Shown here: positions 2,543 through 16,785 of the stretch, piece by piece | How the letters are laid out: each line of letters begins with the position of its first letter | Numbering within the stretch: the first letter of the stretch is position 1 | Origin: Escherichia phage teqskov | Length of the DNA stretch: 64,000 nt | Sequence record: NC_054934.1 | Reading direction: 5' to 3' (one strand) | Translations under genes and position numbers: made by a program | The notes under the pieces: model-generated | Database searches by the model: none | Told to the model about the DNA's origin: nothing | What the model saw: only the letters and a program-made list of their open reading frames with translations

Positions 2543-4521
2543 TGTGATATAGGCTCCAAATCGATAGTTAAGTATTGTGGACGTAAGTCATTTTCAAATA
2601 CAATCAGTGAACCGTCGCGAGTAAAGATAACATCATCGGTTGGGTCAGAATATAATTCGATGGTCTGAACTTCAAATTTTTCAGATGTTAAATTAATTTT
2701 AGCGATATTCCAATAAATCACATCAGCTGGATAATTTATTTCACCGATAACATAGTATTTGTCGCGTCCATCAGAATTTGCTAATTTGTTAAAATCGTTG
2801 CCTGTATACGGCTGAATGTTTTCATTTTCTGTAACATCGCCAGAAGCAAATGGACCAATAATAACTTTACCAATTCCTTTAGAATCTCGGTCTGTTGATA
2901 CTATACGAACGTCATATAATACATCTTCTTCTAAACCAGTATCAGGATTTACAACCTTTCGTCCAGAATTAAATGAAAACGTATTAGATTCCATAGAACG
3001 ATCTTTTATTTGATTATTGTATTTAATACCTGCTTCAGGTGTTTTATAGAAGTTTTGTACTTCACGAACAATTTGAATTGTCGCTGATGAACCAATGATA
3101 GAATGATCTGCATCATCTACATATGTCAACATCTTAGACTTGGCAAAAGACGAGTTAAAAATTTCTACATCTTCGGTATAATAACGATCAATTTTATCAA
3201 TTATTTGACCTTCGAGCCACTGTTCGGATTCTTGCAGCTTATTTAAAGCATATGTGACTTTTAAATTAGTCTTAATAAAAAGATAATTAGGAGAAATAAT
3301 TGATGGCGTAATAGGAGCTAAATTATAGTCTTTGAGATAATTTTTAATATCTTCACGTTGCACAGTAGTTAAATACAATCCTGATTTAGGTTTAGCAGCA
3401 ATAAATGCATACCCAGGTTTAGTAGAATCAGTGAAAGTCTGAACAGCTTGAATAATAGAACCAAATCTCTCTGAAACGAATGTATCGTAGTCAGTCGCAG
3501 TTACGCAGCGTTGCTGGGTTTCGCGTTTAATAGTACCCAATTCGCGAATACGCTCAATATCTTCTGGATCACCGCCGCCATCTGCTCCGACAAAATCTGG
3601 GTCGTCGTTTGGATTTTCATTAATATTGATGACAGTTATATTTGTTAATGTATCTGCATATGAAAATCCGACTGCGCCATTCGCATCTGCACCGTTAGTA
3701 CTGATGTACTCAATAACAATCGTAGAGTTCTGGGTAGGTTTAAGACCTCCGATATAATTAGCGGTCAAAGCTCCTTCAGAAGCATTAACAGAAATTTCAC
3801 CTTCGCCAAAATAGAATTCAGTGTTTCCATCAATAGTTTCACGCATATAGTAAATCGTTGATGTTGAACCAGCATGAACCATTGACTTTCTTGTCCAGTT
3901 AATCCATTCCGCTCCATCAACATATAATTTAACCTGGTTTCTATCAATATTTTTATCATAAATGATAATAGGTGTTAATTTATCATAAATGATTTCAGTT
4001 CTTACTATACGTCCCTGGGCCAATTTTAAACGTGGAAAATATTGGTTATTTTTATCACGAATAGCAATAACGTCTTCGGTAGAAACGAAGTTATATGGAT
4101 TAACAGAAGTATCTTTTGCATATGCTAAAAAGCGAGTTCCGCGAGGAATTGTAATGTAATTCCTATTCAATGCGTCGGTGCATGTTAACATAATTTCGGT
4201 CTGCGCAGCGGATTTTGAAGTAGGTAAATATCCGTTATCTTGTGCAGCTTGAACAACTGAACTTCGTAAGTTAGCAGTACGCATAAAGCTTTCATACACA
4301 GCAGCATTACCAAACTGTTGAATGTACAACGTATTATAAGCCAAAAGGTCACACAGAACGTTTAATCTTGAGCCTTCAAAATCATAATCCAAAAATTCAT
4401 TTTGGCCATTAAGCCATTCAATGAGGTTTTGTTTTATTTCAGCAAACGTACCCCCGACGAATATCTCGGGAATAGCATTTGCTGTTCTTGTTAATTGATA
4501 ATTTACAGGGGTATTTGCCAT
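2539..4521 (-). CDS. 6: Baseplate wedge protein gp6
   Basis: 660 aa ORF, same length as T4 gp6; sits between 5.4 and 7 as in T4. Confidence 0.92.
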   Translation of the reverse strand: MANTPVNYQLTRTANAIPEIFVGGTFAEIKQNLIEWLNGQNEFLDYDFEGSRLNVLCDLLAYNTLYIQQFGNAAVYESFMRTANLRSSVVQAAQDNGYLPTSKSAAQTEIMLTCTDALNRNYITIPRGTRFLAYAKDTSVNPYNFVSTEDVIAIRDKNNQYFPRLKLAQGRIVRTEIIYDKLTPIIIYDKNIDRNQVKLYVDGAEWINWTRKSMVHAGSTSTIYYMRETIDGNTEFYFGEGEISVNASEGALTANYIGGLKPTQNSTIVIEYISTNGADANGAVGFSYADTLTNITVININENPNDDPDFVGADGGGDPEDIERIRELGTIKRETQQRCVTATDYDTFVSERFGSIIQAVQTFTDSTKPGYAFIAAKPKSGLYLTTVQREDIKNYLKDYNLAPITPSIISPNYLFIKTNLKVTYALNKLQESEQWLEGQIIDKIDRYYTEDVEIFNSSFAKSKMLTYVDDADHSIIGSSATIQIVREVQNFYKTPEAGIKYNNQIKDRSMESNTFSFNSGRKVVNPDTGLEEDVLYDVRIVSTDRDSKGIGKVIIGPFASGDVTENENIQPYTGNDFNKLANSDGRDKYYVIGEINYPADVIYWNIAKINLTSEKFEVQTIELYSDPTDDVIFTRDGSLIVFENDLRPQYLTIDLEPISQ

Positions 4522-4823: not shown

Positions 4824-5381
4824 TTATGGCCTCTCATACACATAGCTTCTCAATTTATTAGCCCAACGACTCCAATTTCCAACTATAGTTTTAGTATAAT
4901 TTTTAACGAGAGTTTTTCTTACTGGAGCAGGAGGATCCGTCGGTTCAGTAGTATCAGAAGATGACCTAGAATTACTGCCAGAACCTCCAGATTCACTTTG
5001 TTCTTGGTAGTCATATATTAATGTTACTTCGTAAGTGAATGTCTTCTGGAGATTTTGAGGAGCTTTCCACAAATACAACTGAGTATCAGAATCAGTAGGA
5101 AGTTCTTCCCATGAAGCAGCAGTTTTAAATTCATCGCCTAAACGATATTTCAACGCGTCATTTCCGAAACCAAATACAGATTCATATGTTCCATATAAGC
5201 GATTTTCTTCTACTAAAACCCCAGGAGTTTCTTCGTAACTAGTTATATTTATAGATACTAACGTTTCACCTGTTTCTAATTGAGCGGTAAAGGTGACGTC
5301 GATAGAAGAACCTTCCATGGATTCTCCTAAATCAGCGCTCATTGGAAGTATATTAGCCAATGTCAATCCTCGATCCATCAA
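4824..5381 (-). CDS. 5.1: Conserved hypothetical protein at the gene 5.1 position; exact start uncertain
   Basis: 185 aa ORF between gene 5 and 5.4; overlaps gene 5 end by 29 nt. Confidence 0.55.
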
Positions 5382-7080
5382 TTGTGTATTGACCAGATGA
5401 AATAGAACTCATAGATGCAATTTTTTCTGTCCAATCACCACCAACGTCCCAATCAACTGTCCCAGCAACTTTCCAAGAAAGATTTCCATTTACTGTATTA
5501 GTCTGATTTCCTTCAACTAAAGTGGTAGCATCTCCTTTAACTGTAATGTCAGCATTACCTTCAACTACAATAGTAACATTACCTTTAACTAGGATAGTTC
5601 CATTACCTTCAACCGTCTTAGTTTCATCGCCTCGAACAAATATCGTATTGCTTCCATCTATTTGGTGAAGACGATTATCCATGTTGTAATAAATTTCTGA
5701 TCCACCGACGTTAGTCTTTTTATCACCGGCTACCAAAAAATTACCATCAGCGTTGGTTATATCATACAAATTATCAACAGTTTTTCTTGTTCTTCTCCCT
5801 GACGGTGATACTTCTTCATAAGTTCCAGTTGGATGAACTAATCTATATCGTTCTTGCCCAGGGGTATCATCAAATTCCTGAATATGTCCACTTTCAGTTT
5901 CCATTGTATGCACATAAGGATATTCGCCTTTATATGAAGAAACTGGTTCTTTGAATAAAATTCTCGAGTCATTTGGAATAGGAGGGTCAGCAGGGTCAGA
6001 AGATTTAGTTACAGTCGCAGCCATTGCCGATAAAGACCTAGCTGGAGTTTTCACTTCAACACCATATGATTCCAAATTCCCCGTAAGAATAATCATGGTA
6101 ACACGGGATGCACGGCCTTTTGTTTGTTGATACCACAATGAATCACGACCGGCTTTATATGCTTTTTCCCAATCTCCTGCTAACATAGCAGTTAACATTG
6201 TGTTAAATTTAGCTACACCGCCAACCCCCATCTGAAATGCCATATTTTCTAATGCCATTTGACGAGAACGGTTGACAGCTTGCCAGACTGGTCCTACTTT
6301 AGAATGCGATTTAATGTCACGTTGCATATCAGCCAAATCACGCTCAAATAAAGTCGTCGCCTCTTCCATTGTAATAGAACCTGGATTTCCTGTAATTTCA
6401 CGACCAACTTGTTTTGATAAAACTTTATTAATTTGAGCCATATCACGAACTGGCTGCTTCATGATAAGATGACCAATACCAATTGTCGGATATCCTTCGG
6501 TATCCCAATAAACTTTTAATCTTAATCCTTCATCACGGCGAAGCATTTCAGCCATTGACATATTTGGATTATCATCAGTTGGAATCTCTGATAGTGGTCT
6601 ATCATCGGGATTTATTGCGGTGTCTAAGTTACTATCTTGAATAACATTAGAAGAGGAATCATATCCTACTTCTCCGCCTTGGTTTAATACGTTAGTATCA
6701 TTTCCTAAACGTCTAGGATACTGCCCAGTTGGGTCAGAAAATCCTTCAAGTCTATTCGGTTTTTCGCGAACTATTCCACCATACGTGCCAAGGACAATTC
6801 CGTTAGTTTTCCATTTGTCTAAAAAATGACCGTAAACTCTAGTTCCTTCTACCGGTCCAGTAACAGAACCTCCAATTCCTGACATTGCTGCAGAAGTTAT
6901 AGGTTGAATAACTGACATCCATGGTAATTTTTCAGTTGGAATACCCATTACATCACCTTGTGCTCTTTGAGGTGGATGCAGACCAACAACACGAACACGA
7001 ACACGACCTAATTTTAATGGGTCCATTCTATCTTCAACAACACCAACAAACCAATTAAGGTTATTACTTATCATTTCCAT
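5353..7080 (-). CDS. 5: Baseplate hub subunit and tail lysozyme gp5
   Basis: 575 aa as T4 gp5; internal lysozyme domain (LRLKVYWDTEGYPTIGIGHLI) paralogous to gene e; C-terminal VxGxxxxx beta-helix repeats. Confidence 0.95.
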   Translation of the reverse strand: MEMISNNLNWFVGVVEDRMDPLKLGRVRVRVVGLHPPQRAQGDVMGIPTEKLPWMSVIQPITSAAMSGIGGSVTGPVEGTRVYGHFLDKWKTNGIVLGTYGGIVREKPNRLEGFSDPTGQYPRRLGNDTNVLNQGGEVGYDSSSNVIQDSNLDTAINPDDRPLSEIPTDDNPNMSMAEMLRRDEGLRLKVYWDTEGYPTIGIGHLIMKQPVRDMAQINKVLSKQVGREITGNPGSITMEEATTLFERDLADMQRDIKSHSKVGPVWQAVNRSRQMALENMAFQMGVGGVAKFNTMLTAMLAGDWEKAYKAGRDSLWYQQTKGRASRVTMIILTGNLESYGVEVKTPARSLSAMAATVTKSSDPADPPIPNDSRILFKEPVSSYKGEYPYVHTMETESGHIQEFDDTPGQERYRLVHPTGTYEEVSPSGRRTRKTVDNLYDITNADGNFLVAGDKKTNVGGSEIYYNMDNRLHQIDGSNTIFVRGDETKTVEGNGTILVKGNVTIVVEGNADITVKGDATTLVEGNQTNTVNGNLSWKVAGTVDWDVGGDWTEKIASMSSISSGQYTIDGSRIDIG

Positions 7081-11159: not shown

Positions 11160-11417
11160 ATGAAAACTTATAAAGAGTTTGCTACAGAAACTATTATCAC
11201 TGAATCTTCTCATGGTATGGAAGTAAAGCTTGGAATGGCTTTAGCTGAAGCTGAGCGTCTTTTTTCTCGTATTAAAGAACTTGCTGCTGCAGTCGATCCT
11301 TCATCTTTTAAAGGAGACCAAACTAAAGTTAAAGCACTTTTAGCATTATGCTCTGATGCAGGAGAAATCGCTAAGAACGGTTCTAAGATGAAGAAACGAT
11401 TAGAAGATTTAAAATAA
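11160..11417 (+). CDS. Internal-protein-like ORF with capsid-targeting N-terminus (MKTYKEFATE)
   Basis: 85 aa; N-terminus resembles T4 IP capsid targeting sequence with I/L-x-E cleavage motifs. Confidence 0.55.
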   Translation: MKTYKEFATETIITESSHGMEVKLGMALAEAERLFSRIKELAAAVDPSSFKGDQTKVKALLALCSDAGEIAKNGSKMKKRLEDLK

Positions 11418-11495: not shown

Positions 11496-11729
11496 ATGAA
11501 AACGTATCAAGAATTTATTGCTGAAGCTGCTGATGTAAAAGTTGAGTTTATTTACATTGGCAAGAAAGATAAAATGGGCGAAATGCCTCATGGAGTTCTT
11601 CGTGATGCATTAGATAATTTCGGTCAACTCGGTGGTGAAGAGTTTGGTGATTATTTTGTTATCTATGGACCAGAAAAAGTCATCGAGAAATGGGCTGATA
11701 AATATAAATCAATTTTTCGTAAAAAATAA
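11496..11729 (+). CDS. Internal-protein-like ORF with canonical capsid-targeting N-terminus MKTYQEFIAEA
   Basis: 77 aa from ATG 11496; GGAGA SD; N-terminus matches the T4 IP targeting sequence as remembered. Confidence 0.6.
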   Translation: MKTYQEFIAEAADVKVEFIYIGKKDKMGEMPHGVLRDALDNFGQLGGEEFGDYFVIYGPEKVIEKWADKYKSIFRKK

Positions 11730-12386: not shown

Positions 12387-12680
12387 ATGATTCTTTATGC
12401 TAAAGTATCATCCATTGAAAATGGATATAAATATGATCAAGAAGCAGCTAAAGCCTTGATTGATGATTATGGCATTTTAACATGTTTTGAAGTTGAAAAG
12501 GTTTACATTGACCGTTCATCTTCTCAGGTTAAATTAGTGAAGGAAGACCGTAAATTTAATACAGTAAATTTTGATTTCTTTATTGAAACGGAAAAAGGTC
12601 CTCTTGAATATGATATTTTCAAGAATCCTTTGGGTCTTGAATGTATTGAATATACTTACATTAATATGGTGAGCAAATGA
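12387..12680 (+). CDS. Hypothetical protein
   Basis: 97 aa ORF, tightly packed. Confidence 0.45.
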   Translation: MILYAKVSSIENGYKYDQEAAKALIDDYGILTCFEVEKVYIDRSSSQVKLVKEDRKFNTVNFDFFIETEKGPLEYDIFKNPLGLECIEYTYINMVSK

Positions 12681-13192
12681 ATATTTGTTTAGGTACTACA
12701 ATTCCACAGGGTTACGTAATTGATGTCACTACCTGGGAAAATGATGGTGACAACTATAAAACTAAAACACTGTTTGGCGTAGAAGAGCATGAAATCTTAC
12801 AATTCCAATATCTTTTAAAGAAGTTTAAAAGCAGACATTCTAGTACTAAAGCTGAACGTTATTGTGGTAATGGCTTGTTCAGCGAGCAATCGCTTTTTAT
12901 TTATGAATACTTGGTTGAAGGACTGTTCTCAGAACAACTTTATCCAGAATTCATTAAAAAGGTCTTTGATATAGAAGTTGACCTTGGTAATAAATCCGAA
13001 GAAGACGAAGAACGCATATTTGACTTATTCTTTGTGAATGGTAATAAAGTGCTTGAAGGACTTATTAATATTTTAGGTAATGCTTCTGAGTATTATGATT
13101 ATGATTTTTTGCGTGTAGTTGAGAGTGTTAAATACTCTTATATAGAAGAAGAAATTGTTTTGCCGACCGTTAAAATGTTTAATTTGCTTTAA
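12677..13192 (+). CDS. Hypothetical protein
   Basis: 171 aa ORF, overlaps upstream stop. Confidence 0.5.
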   Translation: MNICLGTTIPQGYVIDVTTWENDGDNYKTKTLFGVEEHEILQFQYLLKKFKSRHSSTKAERYCGNGLFSEQSLFIYEYLVEGLFSEQLYPEFIKKVFDIEVDLGNKSEEDEERIFDLFFVNGNKVLEGLINILGNASEYYDYDFLRVVESVKYSYIEEEIVLPTVKMFNLL

Positions 13193-13278
13193 GAATTATT
13201 TGTTATTATTAACTCATACCGCACTGATTAATACCCTCTATCATCAAGGGTTCTTGTTTGAGAGCCTTTGTTAATAAT

Positions 13279-13351
13279 TGGGAATTAGCCAAGTTGGTAA
13301 GGCATAGCACTTTGACTGCTAGATGCAAAGGTTCGAGTCCTTTATTCCCAG
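13279..13351 (+). tRNA. tRNA-Gln (anticodon UUG)
   Basis: Cloverleaf folded by hand: acceptor tgggaat/attccca, anticodon loop ctTTGac, T-loop ttcgagt. Confidence 0.85.
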
Positions 13352-13352
13352 C

Positions 13353-13439
13353 GCGAGAATGGTCAAATTGGTAAAGGCACAGCACTTAAAATGCTGCGGA
13401 ATGATTTCCTTGTGGGTTCGAGTCCCACTTCTCGCACCA
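13353..13439 (+). tRNA. tRNA-Leu (anticodon UAA), long variable arm, CCA encoded
   Basis: Acceptor gcgagaa/ttctcgc, anticodon loop ctTAAaa, T-loop ttcgagt, ends ACCA. Confidence 0.85.
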
Positions 13440-13444
13440 AATTT

Positions 13445-13518
<74 letters not shown>

Positions 13519-13528
13519 ATTTAATTTA

Positions 13529-13602
13529 CTCCGTGTAGCTCAGTTTGGTAGAGCGTCTGCTTTGGGAGCAGAATGTCGTAGGTTCAAATCCTGCCGCGGA
13601 GA
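13529..13602 (+). tRNA. tRNA-Pro (anticodon UGG)
   Basis: Acceptor ctccgtg/cgcggag with one G-U, anticodon loop ttTGGga, T-loop ttcaaat. Confidence 0.8.
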
Positions 13603-13604
13603 CT

Positions 13605-13694
13605 GGAGGCGTGGCAGAGTGGTTTAATGCACCGGTCTTGAAAACCGGCAGTCGCTCCGGCGACTCATAGGTTCAAATCCTATCGCCTCCGCCA
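13605..13694 (+). tRNA. tRNA-Ser (anticodon UGA), long variable arm, CCA encoded
   Basis: Acceptor ggaggcg/cgcctcc, anticodon loop ctTGAaa, T-loop ttcaaat. Confidence 0.85.
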
Positions 13695-13699
13695 GTTTT

Positions 13700-13775
13700 G
13701 CTGATTTAGCTCAGTAGGTAGAGCAGTTGACTGTTAATCAATTGGTCCATGGTTCGAATCCATGCATGTCCGCCA
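13700..13775 (+). tRNA. tRNA-like element with intact D, anticodon (loop cuGUUaa) and T arms but an acceptor stem that cannot pair; possible hybrid or pseudo-tRNA
   Basis: 5' gctgatt against 3' catgtcc gives only 3 of 7 pairs; first ~26 nt match the remembered T4 tRNA-Thr 5' half; ends GCCA. Confidence 0.5.
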
Positions 13776-13901
13776 AACTTGTGACAGTTGTCACATTAAT
13801 ATCTACTTGACGCGATTATAGGGGTTGAACTGATCACACTTCTCTTAATTTCGTGTGAAGACATCTTGATTGTTGGAGTAGGTATTGCTGTGAACTAATT
13901 A
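13776..13901 (+). other. Non-coding spacer with hairpins (gtgacagttgtcac; cacac...gtgtg); possible small stable RNA
   Basis: No ORF; T4 encodes small stable RNAs in its tRNA region; assignment speculative. Confidence 0.2.
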
Positions 13902-13978
13902 CGGGGTGTAACTCAATTGTATAGAGTAGCGGTCCTCTAAACCGCAGGTTAAAGGTTAGAATCCTTTCACCCTGACCA
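13902..13978 (+). tRNA. tRNA-Arg (anticodon UCU), CCA encoded
   Basis: Acceptor cggggtg/caccctg with one G-U, anticodon loop ccTCTaa, T-loop ttagaat, ends ACCA. Confidence 0.8.
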
Positions 13979-13999
13979 AATTATTGAGAGAATAATATT

Positions 14000-14554
14000 A
14001 TGAGAAGTGATGTAGACTGGGACCAAATTAATTTGGCTATAAAAGCTGGATTAATATACCATGGTAATTTTGAAATAACACAAGAACTAATTGAAAATGT
14101 TGCTTTTCTTAAAATAACAGATAAGAAAAAATTCTTTTCTATGACTGAAGCCAAACGCTTGTCAAAATGGAAAGTATTTTGTAGGACTGCCGCCCTAAAT
14201 CTTTTGAAATTTAAAGATGAATTTGATATAGAAAAAAGCTATCGACAGGCTTTCGTATACATAATGGTAGATACTACAAATCCTAATTATTATAAAATAG
14301 GAAGAAGTATAGAACCTGATGTTAGAGTTATAACAGCAAATACATTTTCACCGTTTAAAAGTTTTAAAATAGTATCATTTAGATATTCCCAGGATGCAGT
14401 AGAACTTGAAAAATATATGCACAGCATTTATAATCAGGACCATATAAATGGTGAATGGTTTTTCTTTCATGACATAAGTTCCATAGTTAAAAAATTAGAT
14501 ACTAAATCTACACAATTTGAAATACCAAATGAGAAACCGGGTCGCTACCGGTAA
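14000..14554 (+). CDS. GIY-YIG superfamily / T5orf172-like domain protein (possible homing-endonuclease relative) in the tRNA region
   Basis: 184 aa; C-terminal half has FVYIMVD...YYKIGRS and GEWFFF motifs typical of T5orf172/GIY-YIG-like domains; sits where T4 carries segB. Confidence 0.5.
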   Translation: MRSDVDWDQINLAIKAGLIYHGNFEITQELIENVAFLKITDKKKFFSMTEAKRLSKWKVFCRTAALNLLKFKDEFDIEKSYRQAFVYIMVDTTNPNYYKIGRSIEPDVRVITANTFSPFKSFKIVSFRYSQDAVELEKYMHSIYNQDHINGEWFFFHDISSIVKKLDTKSTQFEIPNEKPGRYR

Positions 14555-14559
14555 GTCGT

Positions 14560-14837
14560 CGGACTGATGTTCCCTGAGTAAGGAATTGCGTTAATAATCT
14601 TTGCGTTTATTGATGCCCTCTTACATCACAGCAGAAACGGCGCACCGAATTATCGATTCGAGGAAATATCTTTGCCGTAAGCCGAGTAGCGTTTTTGACG
14701 GAACGTTCGGATATGGTCGAGATATGGCCTTTTAAAAATATTGAGTAGCGTCAACTACTTAATAACCGGGTTCAAGTCCCGGCGTTTCGTACAAACACTT
14801 GCCTTAGCAGGTGGAACCCCGACAAGGTTGCCGCAAG
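14560..14837 (+). ncRNA. Structured non-coding region with tRNA-like T-arm motif (ccgGGTTCAAGTCCcgg); candidate small stable RNA
   Basis: ~280 nt without ORF, GC-richer than surroundings, ends at a strong terminator; no full cloverleaf could be folded. Confidence 0.25.
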
Positions 14838-14841
14838 GCTT

Positions 14842-14870
14842 AGCCCCGACCGAAAGGTTGGGGCTTTTTA
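14842..14870 (+). terminator. Rho-independent terminator
   Basis: agccccgacc-gaaa-ggttggggct then TTTTT. Confidence 0.7.
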
Positions 14871-14915
14871 GTATAAATAAGTATATTAAAACCACGAATT
14901 AAAACAGGAAATAAG

Positions 14916-15389
14916 ATGAAATCATATGCTCAATTTTTAAATGAAGCGGTGTTAAATGAAGCATCTAGCACTGAAATTCAAGCTGTTGCAAAAGCTGCCA
15001 TTGCCGCGGGTAAATATTCCTATAAAGATGCTTCCGATGAATCACGATTCCAATTTGCTCGTGATATGAAAGCCGAAGGATTTACAGGGAATGCAGTTAG
15101 TATGGCTTGGAAAAGTTTAGTTGCTACTGGAGCTGCTTTTGCAAAGGCTTCAGGTAAACCTGCTCCTAAGGCTGATCCTAAAGCAGCACAAGAAAAAAAT
15201 ATTGCTAAAGGAATTATCTCTAGGTATGAAGCAATTCTTAAAGAACTTTTGATAATCAAAACTGAAGGCCAAAAGCTAGCTCGTGCTTATAGTTTCAAAG
15301 ATAACCCACATGTTCACTCTCTTGAATATGTTGAAGACATCCAAAAAATTATTAAAGACCGCATTTGGTCTGCTAAACAAATCAAATAA
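14916..15389 (+). CDS. Internal-protein-like ORF with capsid-targeting-like N-terminus (MKSYAQFLNEAVLNEA), Ala/Lys-rich
   Basis: 157 aa; N-terminus resembles the IP targeting sequence with two L-x-E sites; flanked by near-identical terminators. Confidence 0.5.
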   Translation: MKSYAQFLNEAVLNEASSTEIQAVAKAAIAAGKYSYKDASDESRFQFARDMKAEGFTGNAVSMAWKSLVATGAAFAKASGKPAPKADPKAAQEKNIAKGIISRYEAILKELLIIKTEGQKLARAYSFKDNPHVHSLEYVEDIQKIIKDRIWSAKQIK

Positions 15390-15396
15390 CATTCTT

Positions 15397-15425
15397 AGCC
15401 CCAGCCGAAAGGTTGGGGCTTTTTG
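15397..15425 (+). terminator. Rho-independent terminator, near-identical copy of the one at 14842
   Basis: agccccagcc-gaaa-ggttggggct then TTTTT. Confidence 0.7.
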
Positions 15426-15558
15426 GTATCTAGGCCTTTCCGGGCCTCTCTGGGCATCATTTAGTTTATACCCTTTATAATATATTATCCTACCTTTTAA
15501 TTGTCCCTCCTGACCCTAGAATTCCCTAAAACTTTTTAAAAAATTTTTTCACAAAACT

Positions 15559-15589
15559 GTTTACATCCCTGTTCTTCCATGGTACTATA
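15559..15589 (+). promoter_or_regulatory. T4 early promoter with conserved upstream and leader module
   Basis: tttttcacaaaactGTTTACa...TGgTACTATacaactatcaactactgatacag. Confidence 0.65.
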
Positions 15590-15631
15590 CAACTATCAAC
15601 TACTGATACAGAAAACAATTTGGAGAATGAA

Positions 15632-15895
15632 ATGGATAATTACGGCGAACTGTTCAACTTCTTTATGAAATGTGTTTCAGAAGATTTCGGTCGTACAGTG
15701 AATGATATTAAAGTTATCGGTCCTGATCATCCGATGTTTGAAACTTACGCAGTAATGGGTAATGAAGACGGTCAGTGGTATACTGTAAAGGTTGTGATTA
15801 ACATGTTCACGGCAGAAGGTTATGTTAAACTGTCTTCTAAAGTTTACCATGATAACGACGAAATCGCAGAAGAATATTTCAATAATATGAAATAA
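15632..15895 (+). CDS. Hypothetical protein
   Basis: 87 aa from ATG 15632 with GGAGA SD in the conserved leader. Confidence 0.5.
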   Translation: MDNYGELFNFFMKCVSEDFGRTVNDIKVIGPDHPMFETYAVMGNEDGQWYTVKVVINMFTAEGYVKLSSKVYHDNDEIAEEYFNNMK

Positions 15896-15964
15896 TTGTG
15901 TACAAACACCAAGGACGGTGTTATTATAGACTTATCAAAAACAAATACAGAAACGGAGAAATAA

Positions 15965-16177
15965 ATGACTACTTTAATTATTTGGTTCGACGAAAATGAA
16001 GAAACATACTGCGTGAACATTGGCGAAAGCCCAATGCCAGAATTTGAATCTTCAGATAAAAACTCGGTTGTATCTTGGGCTGAAGGTTATAAAGCAGCAA
16101 AAGGCGATGTTGAAATAGTTTACAAACTCTTGGGAGTAGAGTATAATACTCCCACGGATTATAAAACCCTTAATTAA
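15965..16177 (+). CDS. Hypothetical protein
   Basis: 70 aa ORF with GGAGA SD. Confidence 0.45.
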
Positions 16178-16191
16178 CTAAAGGAAATGCT

Positions 16192-16785
16192 ATGAACATG
16201 CTGAAGAAAATTGTTGAGTTTATTCGCACTAAACTTGGTTCTGCTATGGCTAAAAATTTATCTGTTGAAGAACAGTATACTGCTGCGGCAGCAAAACTAC
16301 TTGATAAGATTAAAGATCTAAAAACTGCTTCTGTTAAATCTATTAATGAAGAAAAACGTATTCGTGAACTTATTGTCGAAAAGAATCGACAGGCCGAATC
16401 AAAAGAGCGTGAAATTCGCAAGCTTCTTTCTGAAGGTCAAGATGTAACAATGCATGCTAAACTCGGCTTGCTATATCGTCGAACAGCTGAACAGTTGACT
16501 ACTAAAGCTGATGGTTATGCTGAAATGCGAATTGAAATCGCCAAGAAAGTAGTTGAATTGGATGATGCTCGCCAAGAACTTGCAGTTAAATTGGAATATA
16601 TCCGTGAAACTCGTGCAGCAAATGCCCTTGGAATTAGTACTGCTGATGATGTAGTTGAAATTGCAGCGCTAACTAAAGTTGATATTGAAGATACTCTCGC
16701 CCGAGTTGAAACCTTTAATGGTAATATTTCTGGGGTTGAAACTACCTCTGCCGATGTTCAGGAATATATTAATTCTCTGAAATAA
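16192..16785 (+). CDS. Coiled-coil protein (possible PspA/IM30-like architecture)
   Basis: 197 aa, heptad-rich charged helices; similarity to PspA is by eye only. Confidence 0.45.

Follow-up and report, generated by a model that had tools for sequence, protein, structure and literature searches.

The window (the whole stretch of 64,000 nucleotides analysed, sequence record NC_054934.1) derives from Escherichia phage teqskov, a T4-like coliphage, and represents its tRNA region. The part studied here is composed of the following features:

13902..13978, + strand: tRNA-Arg(UCU), 'W' allele (ARAGORN; Rfam tRNA, 60.7 bits)
13979..13999, + strand: ORF leader of 21 nt, AATTATTGAGAGAATAATATT, beginning right after the CCA end of the tRNA
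14000..14554, + strand: 184-aa ORF with a T5orf172/MUG113 domain (ORF list, Pfam)
14528..14646, + strand: rnaD, the T4 species 2 RNA (coordinates carried over from the T4 and Aplg8 annotations)
14653..14791, + strand: rnaC, the T4 species 1 RNA, cloverleaf-like (T4 and Aplg8 annotations)
14792..14841, + strand: 3' trailer from rnaC to the terminator with small hairpins (fold; kept in T4)
14842..14870, + strand: intrinsic terminator copy 1 (terminator scan), identical to the single terminator of T4
14872..14879, + strand: TATAAATA, a T4 late-promoter-like motif (pattern search)
14916..15389, + strand: 157-aa internal-protein-like gene (ORF lists, phrog_2280)
15397..15425, + strand: intrinsic terminator copy 2 (terminator scan)

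The gene order Arg-ORF-rnaD-rnaC contrasts with Ile-segB-Arg-rnaD-rnaC in T4. A preliminary description, whose four observed features are all present in the sequence, had correctly placed tRNA-Arg upstream of the ORF (21 nt before its start codon), but erred in assigning the ORF to the place of T4 segB: segB occupies the Ile/Arg gap, whereas the ORF resides in the Arg/rnaD gap, a junction of 1 nt in T4. From the synteny comparison with T4, the difference in terminators and cassette (see below) stands, while the segB slot does not. Two features had escaped that description, i.e., the replacement of another cassette by tRNA-Arg plus ORF and the loss of four tRNA genes from the window. Overall, three kinds of turnover are apparent within 2 kb: tRNA deletion between D-arm repeats, the swap of a tRNA-plus-ORF cassette, and a further cassette with a terminator repeated on either side.

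The 184-aa ORF consists of a helical N-terminal domain of no known family (residues 1 to ~80) and a T5orf172/MUG113 domain of the GIY-YIG superfamily (residues ~84–169). The latter contains the motifs on which a T5orf172-type, GIY-YIG-related assignment had been based (FVYIMVD, residues 85–91; YYKIGRS, 97–103; GEWFFF, 151–156), and the assignment is borne out by the Pfam profiles MUG113 (PF13455; 38.0 bits, gathering threshold 22.3) and T5orf172 (PF10544; 27.9 bits, threshold 20), with relatives of the ORF scoring 31–69 bits. The GIY-YIG profile (PF01541) remained below its threshold (13.1 vs 22.6 bits, E = 0.13). The AlphaFold model is confident and displays an α/β fold of the GIY-YIG type; its best matches are GIY-YIG nucleases, and the catalytic domain matches no structures other than those of DNA nucleases. 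The core motif set of T5orf172 proteins is complete (strand-1 Tyr in FVYIM, YKIG, R109, E137 and GEWF), and Y87, K99, G101, R109, E137, H141 and E152-W153-F154 are invariant across seven divergent T4-like and T5-like members; the second Tyr of the GIY-YIG motif varies within the family. The order of secondary-structure elements, rather than a superposition, suggests E137 to be the catalytic Glu. The protein possesses a single Cys and no Zn finger. The ORF is related over its full length to the ORFs in the tRNA region of T5/BF23, from which the name T5orf172 derives.

Profile comparison (hhalign) with SegB and I-TevI detected no similarity (probabilities of 0.1 % and 0.3 %, respectively), and membership in the Seg family was therefore dismissed. 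A sequence search against solved structures retrieved no match, and NCBIfam none for either ORF. Weak domain-level matches in PADLOC (PDC-S57 and PD-Lambda-1) reflect the shared nuclease domain; a role as defence system was discarded, since the context is that of a phage and partner genes are absent.

The ORF fills exactly one inter-RNA spacer, extending from 21 nt past the CCA end of tRNA-Arg to 27 nt inside rnaD, which contributes its stop codon and the nine codons before it. Co-transcription with the tRNAs is therefore probable. A dedicated promoter is not evident, the sigma-70 scan being at chance level (11 found vs 10.2 expected). The leader harbours a Shine-Dalgarno-like GAGAG element and is conserved between the window and VR7, ESh27, KpV477 and two further loci (L056 and L058); the predicted ribosome-binding site is weak. 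The 5' hairpin of rnaD (14536–14552) ends at the ORF stop codon, and 5' processing of rnaD would remove this codon and thereby lead to low expression, as proposed for segB. The C-terminal tail, read from rnaD, varies between contexts. In T4 and Aplg8-type genomes, the tRNA-Arg ACCA end aligns with the final codons of this tail (ATA CCA); origin from a tRNA 3'-end remnant was not adopted, since (I/L/M)-P at this position is also present where the codons mismatch the ACCA end.

The structured stretch downstream, previously delimited as non-coding at 14560–14837, is not new but comprises the long-known small RNAs rnaD and rnaC of T4 and begins already at 14528, inside the ORF. Identity to the T4 locus amounts to 97.5 % over 354 nt (rnaD 99 %, rnaC 97.8 %), and both RNAs were reported as stable processed transcripts in T4 by Northern blot (PMC9697503). 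Conservation of secondary structure is evident from compensatory changes among eight phages in 9 of 29 predicted pairs of rnaD and from compensatory changes in 13 of 45 predicted pairs of rnaC, including its T-arm-like and acceptor-like stems. The minimum free energy of rnaC is -50.2 kcal/mol (z = -4.5); the fold of 14792–14870 (z = -4.3) owes most to the terminator. The T-arm-like hairpin motif noticed earlier (ccgGGTTCAAGTCCcgg, 14766–14782) is part of rnaC. Two short TTG-start ORFs (44 and 53 aa) do exist within 14560–14837, but are not credible as genes, since they overlie RNA genes with covarying structures. An Rfam scan of 12500–16500 at permissive thresholds yielded only tRNAs and weak chance matches and no family for 14528–14791, which is due to the absence of rnaC/rnaD models and not of structure. 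Many GenBank records list 14528–14791 as hypothetical proteins; annotation as rnaD and rnaC would be appropriate.

Terminator copy 1 closes the tRNA/rnaD/rnaC transcription unit. The presence of a near-identical second copy, as well as of an internal-protein-like gene bracketed by the two, was confirmed: each hairpin (14842–14865 and 15397–15420) combines a 10-bp stem capped by GAAA with a T run, and both are embedded in a 36-nt direct repeat (14839–14874 and 15394–15429; 92 % identity). A 30-nt pattern with three mismatches allowed occurs exactly twice in the 64 kb (0 expected), and the GA/AG difference between the hairpins preserves pairing (G-U/A-U vs A-U/G-U). The direct repeat delimits a 555-bp cassette absent from T4, where a single terminator joins the left and right flanks of the window exactly. 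Gain or loss of the cassette could occur by recombination between the repeated terminators. The encoded 157-aa protein resembles internal proteins by its N-terminus (MKSYAQFLNE), which is similar to those of the two other internal-protein-like genes of the window (MKTYKEFATE at 11160 and MKTYQEFIAE at 11496); the MKTYQEFIAE-type leader is the established capsid-targeting consensus of T4-type internal proteins. The gene belongs to phrog_2280 (E = 4.8e-60), a family without assigned function, and is found in 510 phage records, while missing at the corresponding position of T4. By its position 37 nt upstream of this gene, TATAAATA is a candidate late promoter, the motif occurring in the window at chance level (9 vs 10.9 expected). 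An early-type promoter (TTTACA-N17-TACTAT) is located ~140 nt after terminator copy 2.

The ORF is sporadically distributed and rare among T4-like phages: 807 phage records match the region, yet only 7 hold all of it, and only 14 records encode the ORF at ≥90 % amino-acid identity. The arrangements at the locus are alternatives with clean boundaries. In T4, tRNA-Arg abuts rnaD with no ORF between them. In Sf21, the flanks are 98.5–99.8 % identical to those of the window, yet His, Arg and orf116 take the place of Arg(W) and the ORF, so that tRNA-Arg plus ORF represents the replacement of another cassette (Sf21 type, His-Arg-orf116). The segment 13901–14869 of the window is 93.8 % identical to VR7 and 13901–14528 is 95.7 % identical to VR26, whereas the flanking genes share 75–81 %. 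Since the identity of the block exceeds that of its flanks, the tRNA-Arg/ORF block looks to have been horizontally transferred between genera.

Association with tRNA genes extends to relatives sharing the N-terminal domain: 21 of 21 such loci are part of a tRNA cluster and have the orientation of its tRNAs, a partly inherited association corresponding to ~10 independent contexts rather than 21. Fourteen of these ORFs stop at the border of the next tRNA or within it (0–39 nt), and 14 begin 15–25 nt past a tRNA; in three additional metagenomic contexts, tRNA-Arg is located directly 5' of the ORF. No tRNA is present within 1.5 kb of 21 loci encoding relatives with the T5orf172 domain only.

The accompanying tRNA-Arg is a distinctive allele. 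Its identity is 99 % to those of VR7 and VR26, 58 % to that of Aplg8 and 40 % to that of T4. This 'W' allele has the T-loop TTAGAAT (A56) and the D-loop AATTGTATA (U19), where A56 would pair with U19 as G56 would with C19 in sister alleles; A56 is rare, C56 being present in 134 of 143 phage tRNAs scored. The T-loop stretch reads GGTTAGAATCC. The 'W' tRNA-Arg accompanies the ORF in coliphage-type relatives, and all nine phage records matching most of a 13780–14010 query (spacer, tRNA-Arg and ORF start) possess the ORF as well.

On balance, the ORF is rather likely to be a free-standing, putative homing-endonuclease-like gene specialised for tRNA clusters. By analogy to SegB and Odn, the N-terminal domain would guide the nuclease to tRNA-gene DNA, the nuclease would cut a co-infecting phage devoid of the gene in or near the tRNA-Arg region, and the genome that was cut would, on repair of the break, receive a copy of the ORF and of the neighbouring tRNA-Arg allele. 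As is typical of homing genes, close relatives may lack the ORF although the locus is collinear in other respects (Sf21 flanks; 7 of 807 records), and between genomes the ORF is more alike than its flanks (VR7, VR26). Family and fold, the invariant residues, purifying selection (dN/dS 0.11–0.12), the sporadic distribution and the tRNA-cluster association likewise speak for this reading; the variable second Tyr, the indirect assignment of E137 and the partly inherited nature of the association speak against it.

Alternatively, the ORF could encode a retained beneficial rather than selfish factor, either a DNA-binding regulator or a nuclease whose breaks in the tRNA cluster aid recombination, amplification or competitor exclusion, as recently shown for SegB; this appears possible, if clearly less probable. 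The family is labelled 'DNA-binding' in UniProt, and SegB amplifies tRNA genes, enabling escape from the Septu defence system (PMC13096335). Purifying selection (dN/dS ~0.12) and the fixed positions of paralogues in many T5-like phages (one context for loci L015–L018, another for L022–L025) also fit a retained beneficial function and, to that extent, count against homing. However, the sporadic distribution among T4-like phages and the apparently recent exchange of the block between genera speak against retention for benefit, and a purely DNA-binding role is disfavoured by the invariance of R109 and E137, residues of catalytic type. Moreover, this alternative is not a clean one, as a benefit via recombination would itself stem from endonuclease activity.

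An action of the protein on RNA, e.g., in processing or binding of tRNA, rnaD or rnaC precursors, is very unlikely. It would accord with the strict confinement of the family to tRNA/stable-RNA clusters, the overlap of its ORFs with the 5' ends of downstream RNAs, and an N-terminal domain of no known type; however, the catalytic domain matches DNA nucleases exclusively, the characterised T5orf172 protein cleaves DNA (PMC8263062), and rnaD and rnaC mostly occur without the ORF in T4-like phages (793 records vs ~14). Finally, a decaying, functionless remnant, as the context-dependent tail read from rnaD and the weak predicted ribosome-binding site might indicate, is hardly credible given a dN/dS of 0.11–0.12 (purifying selection), an ORF intact in every relative down to 39 % identity, and a confidently predicted fold.

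Following the preferred reading of a homing-endonuclease-like gene, one may speculate that the family combining the N-terminal and T5orf172 domains forms a tRNA-gene-specialised homing endonuclease lineage common to T4-like and T5-like phages, which inserts exactly in inter-tRNA spacers and, in the coliphage clade, travels with a replacement tRNA-Arg(UCU); loss of the near-universal C56 would render the donor allele immune to T-arm-reading nucleases, while compensation in the D-loop would keep the tRNA functional. This extended scenario as a whole is rather improbable. If true, a second, unrelated nuclease family would reside at tRNA clusters of T4-like and T5-like phages, implying that such nucleases generally shape tRNA content. 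tRNA clusters are now known as anti-defence loci that can be amplified by SegB. Most of the present finding is ordinary, since rnaD and rnaC are known and the ORF is a further member of the T5orf172 family; current concepts are modestly extended rather than changed. For annotation, the ORF is best named T5orf172-family putative homing endonuclease.

Among known systems, the rnaD/rnaC locus of T4 agrees with that of the window in order and in position relative to the terminator; differences are few substitutions (e.g., the T-loop-like UUCAAGU vs UUCGAAU in T4) and the ORF, rather than tRNA-Arg, preceding rnaD. The repeated terminators recall the PeSL-type regulatory repeats through which genes are shuffled in the hyperplastic regions of T4-like phages (PMC2839356, PMC4122927), inasmuch as copies of a stem-loop regulatory element border a gene that some phages have and others lack, within a variable region. 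However, the stem-loop of the window is a strong intrinsic terminator, followed by the late-type TATAAATA after copy 1 and by the early-type promoter only ~140 nt after copy 2, and therefore does not seem to constitute a compact promoter-plus-stem-loop PeSL unit.

T5orf172 genes are regarded as homing-endonuclease genes (PMC10448857), and Odn (Gp88), a T5orf172 protein of phage ICP1, is a DNA nuclease inactivated by the Glu-to-Ala exchange E180A (PMC8263062). The ICP1 proteins share with the window ORF a T5orf172 catalytic domain with conserved Arg and Glu as well as a modular build with a targeting domain at the N-terminus (PMC8263062, PMC10448857). In contrast to the helical domain of the window protein, most of them employ CapR-like Zn-finger or RepA_N DNA-binding domains, and their genes are found near essential-gene modules or satellite origins instead of tRNA clusters.

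SegB of T4, which cleaves tRNA genes at the T-arm motif, drives the inheritance of the tRNA region of this phage (PMC2330249). Like the window ORF, segB is a free-standing nuclease gene of the GIY-YIG fold superfamily that adjoins tRNA-Arg in the same tRNA cluster; it is tied to tRNA genes across phages (PMC13096335), and RNA processing parts it from its stop codon (PMC2330249), as is predicted for the window ORF. The two differ in slot (Ile-segB-Arg vs Arg-ORF-rnaD) and in their DNA-binding part, sharing no detectable sequence similarity, and the activity of SegB and its target GGTTCRANTCC in tRNA-Asn are proven, whereas the window ORF encodes a putative nuclease.

The closest counterparts are found in the Demerecviridae, i.e., BF23 ORF trn 2.8 (172 aa) and ORF trn 2.12.1, the 172-aa ORF of a contig of phage T5 length (L023), and gp078 of Epseptimavirus RN29. 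Despite only 25–42 % identity to the window protein, they have the same two-domain architecture, with F.IT..LI and AALNLLKFK in the N-terminal part followed by the T5orf172 domain, and lie inside tRNA clusters with their 3' ends overlapping the next tRNA. In the closest T5-like relatives, tRNA-Arg(UCU) is located downstream of the ORF and overlaps it, whereas it is upstream in the window. The existing annotation of the VR7 orthologue of the window ORF reads 'similar to BF23 ORF172c'.

The segment 13200-15600 represents the tRNA region of a phage of T-even type. Identity reaches 99.9 % with Tequatrovirus BCH953P2 and 98.8 % with Escherichia phage LF82-9; of 807 matching T4-like phage records, only 7 cover at least 80 % of the region. 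All features named in the preliminary description were found at the coordinates it gave, arranged as follows:

First in order, + strand: genes for tRNA-Gln, Leu, Gly, Pro and Ser
Between tRNA-Ser and tRNA-Arg(UCU), + strand: defective hybrid tRNA
13902-13978, + strand: tRNA-Arg(UCU), directly before the ORF in gene order
14000-14554, + strand: the ORF (184 aa), between tRNA-Arg and the non-coding stretch
Between the ORF and the 157-aa ORF, + strand: non-coding stretch, then a terminator
14528-14646, + strand: rnaD (species 2 RNA; coordinates from T4 and Aplg8 annotations)
14653-14791, + strand: rnaC (species 1 RNA; coordinates from T4 and Aplg8 annotations)
14872-14879, + strand: TATAAATA, late-promoter-like motif of putative function
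After the first terminator, + strand: 157-aa ORF, then the second terminator
Beyond the second terminator, + strand: homologues of T4 e.8 and downstream genes

The translated ORF contains FVYIMVD, YYKIGRS and GEWFFF, previously read as marks of a GIY-YIG/T5orf172 fold. It passes the curated Pfam thresholds of MUG113 (38.0 bits; threshold 22.3) and T5orf172 (27.9 bits; threshold 20) but misses that of GIY-YIG (13.1 versus 22.6 bits); the ORF belongs to phrog_5032 (E = 3e-59). A confident AlphaFold2 model built from 12 homologues (pLDDT 91.6, pTM 0.86) predicts an N-terminal domain of four helices (residues 7-74) and a beta-beta-alpha-beta-alpha C-terminal domain. Residues invariant across seven divergent members include Y87, K99, G101, R109, E137, H141 and E152-W153-F154; judged from secondary-structure order rather than superposition, R109 and E137 may occupy the places expected of the GIY-YIG catalytic Arg and Glu. 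Sequence similarity to SegB or I-TevI was not detectable, and the relation to Seg proteins is therefore one of fold only. A dN/dS of 0.11-0.12 (versus VR7, VR26 and ESh27) demonstrates functional constraint on the protein, and it is unlikely that the ORF is a dead remnant.

At least 90 % identity to the ORF protein is found in only 14 phage records (tblastn). Versions with 78 % identity occur in a few Mosigvirus phages, those with 50-59 % in T4-like phages of Klebsiella and Serratia, and full-length relatives with 25-42 % in T5-like phages. For the VR7 orthologue, the annotation reads 'similar to bacteriophage BF23 ORF172c'. Since the BF23 tRNA-region record contains two relatives, trn 2.8 (172 aa) and trn 2.12.1, and a 172-aa version is also present on a 121,750-bp contig (L023), the family appears to be the namesake of the T5orf172 domain. 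Both the family and this kind of location are known; the ORF itself is uncharacterised. The BF23 tRNA region (L009) also contains several annotated stable or tRNA-like RNAs without assigned function (3020-3380, 4056-4227, 5371-5473, 5701-5825, 6619-6692, 13651-14434); its 784-nt 'RNAX', upstream of tRNA-Arg, is at the place of the T5orf172 ORF in related Epseptimavirus (RN29 gp078).

The ORF was thought to sit where T4 has segB. However, the order in T4 is tRNA-Ile, segB, tRNA-Arg, rnaD and rnaC, a single nucleotide separating tRNA-Arg from rnaD, whereas the ORF lies between tRNA-Arg and rnaD, and so does not replace segB. Homology to T4 restarts at ATACCAAATGAGAAACCGGG, which in T4 is the 3' end of tRNA-Arg plus one base and rnaD, and in the window ORF codons 174 onward, of which the final 9 plus the stop lie in rnaD sequence. 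The codons ATA CCA (Ile-Pro) plus AAT equal the T4 tRNA-Arg 3' end (ATACCA + A) before rnaD (window 14516-14532; L008 about 2520-2545; L004 about 2665-2680, minus strand). In ESh27, ATACCA stands at the place of the GACCA end of tRNA-Arg in Aplg8-type phages, and a 7-bp direct repeat, ACCAAAT, borders the ORF unit (13975-13981 and 14523-14529). These matches may reflect junction microhomology or a leftover tRNA end.

Most close relatives resemble Sf21, Aplg8 and wV7, whose flanks are 98.5-99.8 % identical to those of the window, but which have, within the same boundaries (about 13892 and 14528-14532), tRNA-His, another tRNA-Arg and an unrelated ORF of 116 aa. The slot therefore takes alternative cassettes. 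The 116-aa ORF (MKGNVYLVVHDL...) occupies it in most close relatives (e.g., L002:2618-2968, L048:1620-1970, L008:2542-2886); in ESh27 it comes after the T5orf172 ORF. In case of VR7 (genus Gaprivervirus), flanking genes are only 78-81 % identical, while block 13901-14869 shares 93.8 %; with VR26 the block is smaller (13901-14528, 95.7 %), the smallest common unit therefore being tRNA-Arg plus ORF. Judged from these identities, this unit has passed between genera after the divergence of the genes around it.

The tRNA-Arg allele itself is 99 % identical among window, VR7 and VR26, as compared to only 40 % with that of T4 and 58 % with that of Aplg8. All 9 phage records matching most of a 13780-14010 query (spacer, tRNA-Arg and ORF start) contain the ORF. 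The linked tRNA-Arg(UCU) lacks the near-universal C56, which 134 of the 143 distinct phage tRNAs compared possess. In its place, A56 occurs together with U19 in the window, VR7 and VR26, and G56 together with C19 in the sister alleles of two metagenomic phages (L056:1406-1482, L058:1406-1482); hence the tertiary 19-56 elbow pair covaries. Its DNA motif GGTTAGAATCC departs from the SegB core recognition motif GGTTCRANTCC.

Upstream, a hybrid pseudo-tRNA was observed at 13700-13775. Compared to BCH953P2 and LF82-9, the window lacks 262 bp, so that tRNA-Met and tRNA-Tyr are missing entirely, tRNA-Thr has lost its 3' part and tRNA-Asn its 5' part, with the crossover in D-arm sequence GGTAGAGCA common to tRNA-Thr and tRNA-Asn (13717-13725). 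The acceptor stem of the chimera has lost pairing; ARAGORN finds no tRNA at 13700-13775, and Rfam only a partial match (13707-13764). Four tRNA genes have therefore been lost, among them tRNA-Tyr, which aids T6 in escaping the Septu defence system (PMC13096335).

The association with tRNAs was surveyed at 38 viral-contig loci with relatives plus annotated loci, the N-terminal domain being called present at a profile E of 1e-7 or better. All 21 loci with this domain lie inside tRNA clusters on the tRNA strand; the ORF starts 15-25 nt past the preceding tRNA in 14/21, and its 3' end abuts or extends 0-39 nt into the next tRNA gene, likewise in 14/21. At 21 loci whose relatives have the T5orf172 domain only, no tRNA was found within 1.5 kb. 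L041, matching residues 52-164 without an N-terminal-domain profile match, is also in a tRNA cluster. Three further metagenomic contexts have tRNA-Arg(UCU) right before the ORF. About ten independent arrangements are left once inherited contexts are removed. Of 11 contexts in the T4-like clade, 10 have tRNA-Arg(UCU) as the upstream neighbour of the ORF; in the closest T5-like relatives it overlaps the ORF 3' end. In one of the three metagenomic contexts, a T4-like contig, a second, divergent 175-aa ORF (L058:2860-3387; N-terminal region, then T5orf172 domain) exactly fills the gap from tRNA-Lys (starting 15 nt past it) to tRNA-Asn (ending 1 nt before it), suggesting family expansion inside one tRNA cluster. 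The strict tie of this two-domain family to inter-tRNA spacers, seen in two families of phages, as well as its linkage with an unusual tRNA-Arg allele, goes modestly beyond the literature searched.

The non-coding stretch has been known for decades: rnaC and rnaD are transcribed in T4 (PMC3014915, PMC9697503). It is 97.5 % identical to T4 over 354 nt; 793 phage records contain the pair, and some genera have rnaC or rnaD singly between tRNA genes. Rfam has no model for either. The proposed conserved structure is borne out by compensatory changes in 13 of 45 consensus pairs of rnaC, which folds far below shuffled controls (z = -4.5), and in 9 of 29 predicted pairs of rnaD. Covarying rnaC elements include a 10-bp central hairpin, an acceptor-like closing stem and a T-arm-like stem (CCGGG/CCCGG to CCTGG/CCAGG); the suspected T-arm motif ccgGGTTCAAGTCCcgg (14766-14782) is thus confirmed and belongs to a cloverleaf-like RNA. 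The 'hypothetical protein' CDSs annotated across rnaD and rnaC in many GenBank records (e.g., UFV-AREG1, slur02, KIT03) probably correspond to spurious TTG-start ORFs (window 14601-14735 and 14741-14902).

Both hairpins (14842 and 15397; 10-bp stem, GAAA loop, T run) lie within a 36-nt direct repeat (92 % identical) present in exactly 2 copies in 64 kb, with none expected by chance. T4 has one copy of the terminator, its upstream side corresponding to the window before copy 1 and its downstream side to the window after copy 2; the window therefore differs by a 555-bp unit absent from T4, consistent with the presumed cassette. The unit comprises the late-promoter-like motif, a ribosome-binding site, the 157-aa gene (phrog_2280; 510 phage records) and the second terminator. 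The product begins MKSYAQFLNE, resembling the leaders of the two internal-protein-like genes at 11160 (MKTYKEFATE) and 11496 (MKTYQEFIAE). If the unit is gained or lost through recombination of the repeated stem-loops, this fits the general notion of gene shuffling mediated by regulatory repeats in T4-type hyperplastic regions (PMC2839356, PMC4122927). The repeat does not appear to form a compact PeSL (promoter-early stem-loop) unit. The cassette represents ordinary turnover of such a region.

For the ORF, three points are established: its product is a constrained two-domain protein with predicted nuclease fold; the gene is present in some relatives and absent from others, with clean boundaries; and it has spread laterally with the adjacent tRNA. 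Because of these and of close precedents (SegB, Odn), a homing-endonuclease-like role is rather probable. The main rival, that a nuclease or DNA-binding function has been kept for its benefit, is possible but doubtful, and an RNA-directed product is unlikely. By analogy, the ORF would act in homing as does SegB, encoded in the same tRNA cluster of T4, which recognises the T-arm motif GGTTCRANTCC of tRNA genes, cuts the tRNA-Asn gene of T2L and causes the T4 tRNA region to be inherited preferentially; there, segB loses its stop codon when tRNA-Arg matures, a proposed brake on expression (PMC2330249). In case of the T5orf172 nuclease Odn of phage ICP1, DNA is cut and the E180A change abolishes activity (PMC8263062).
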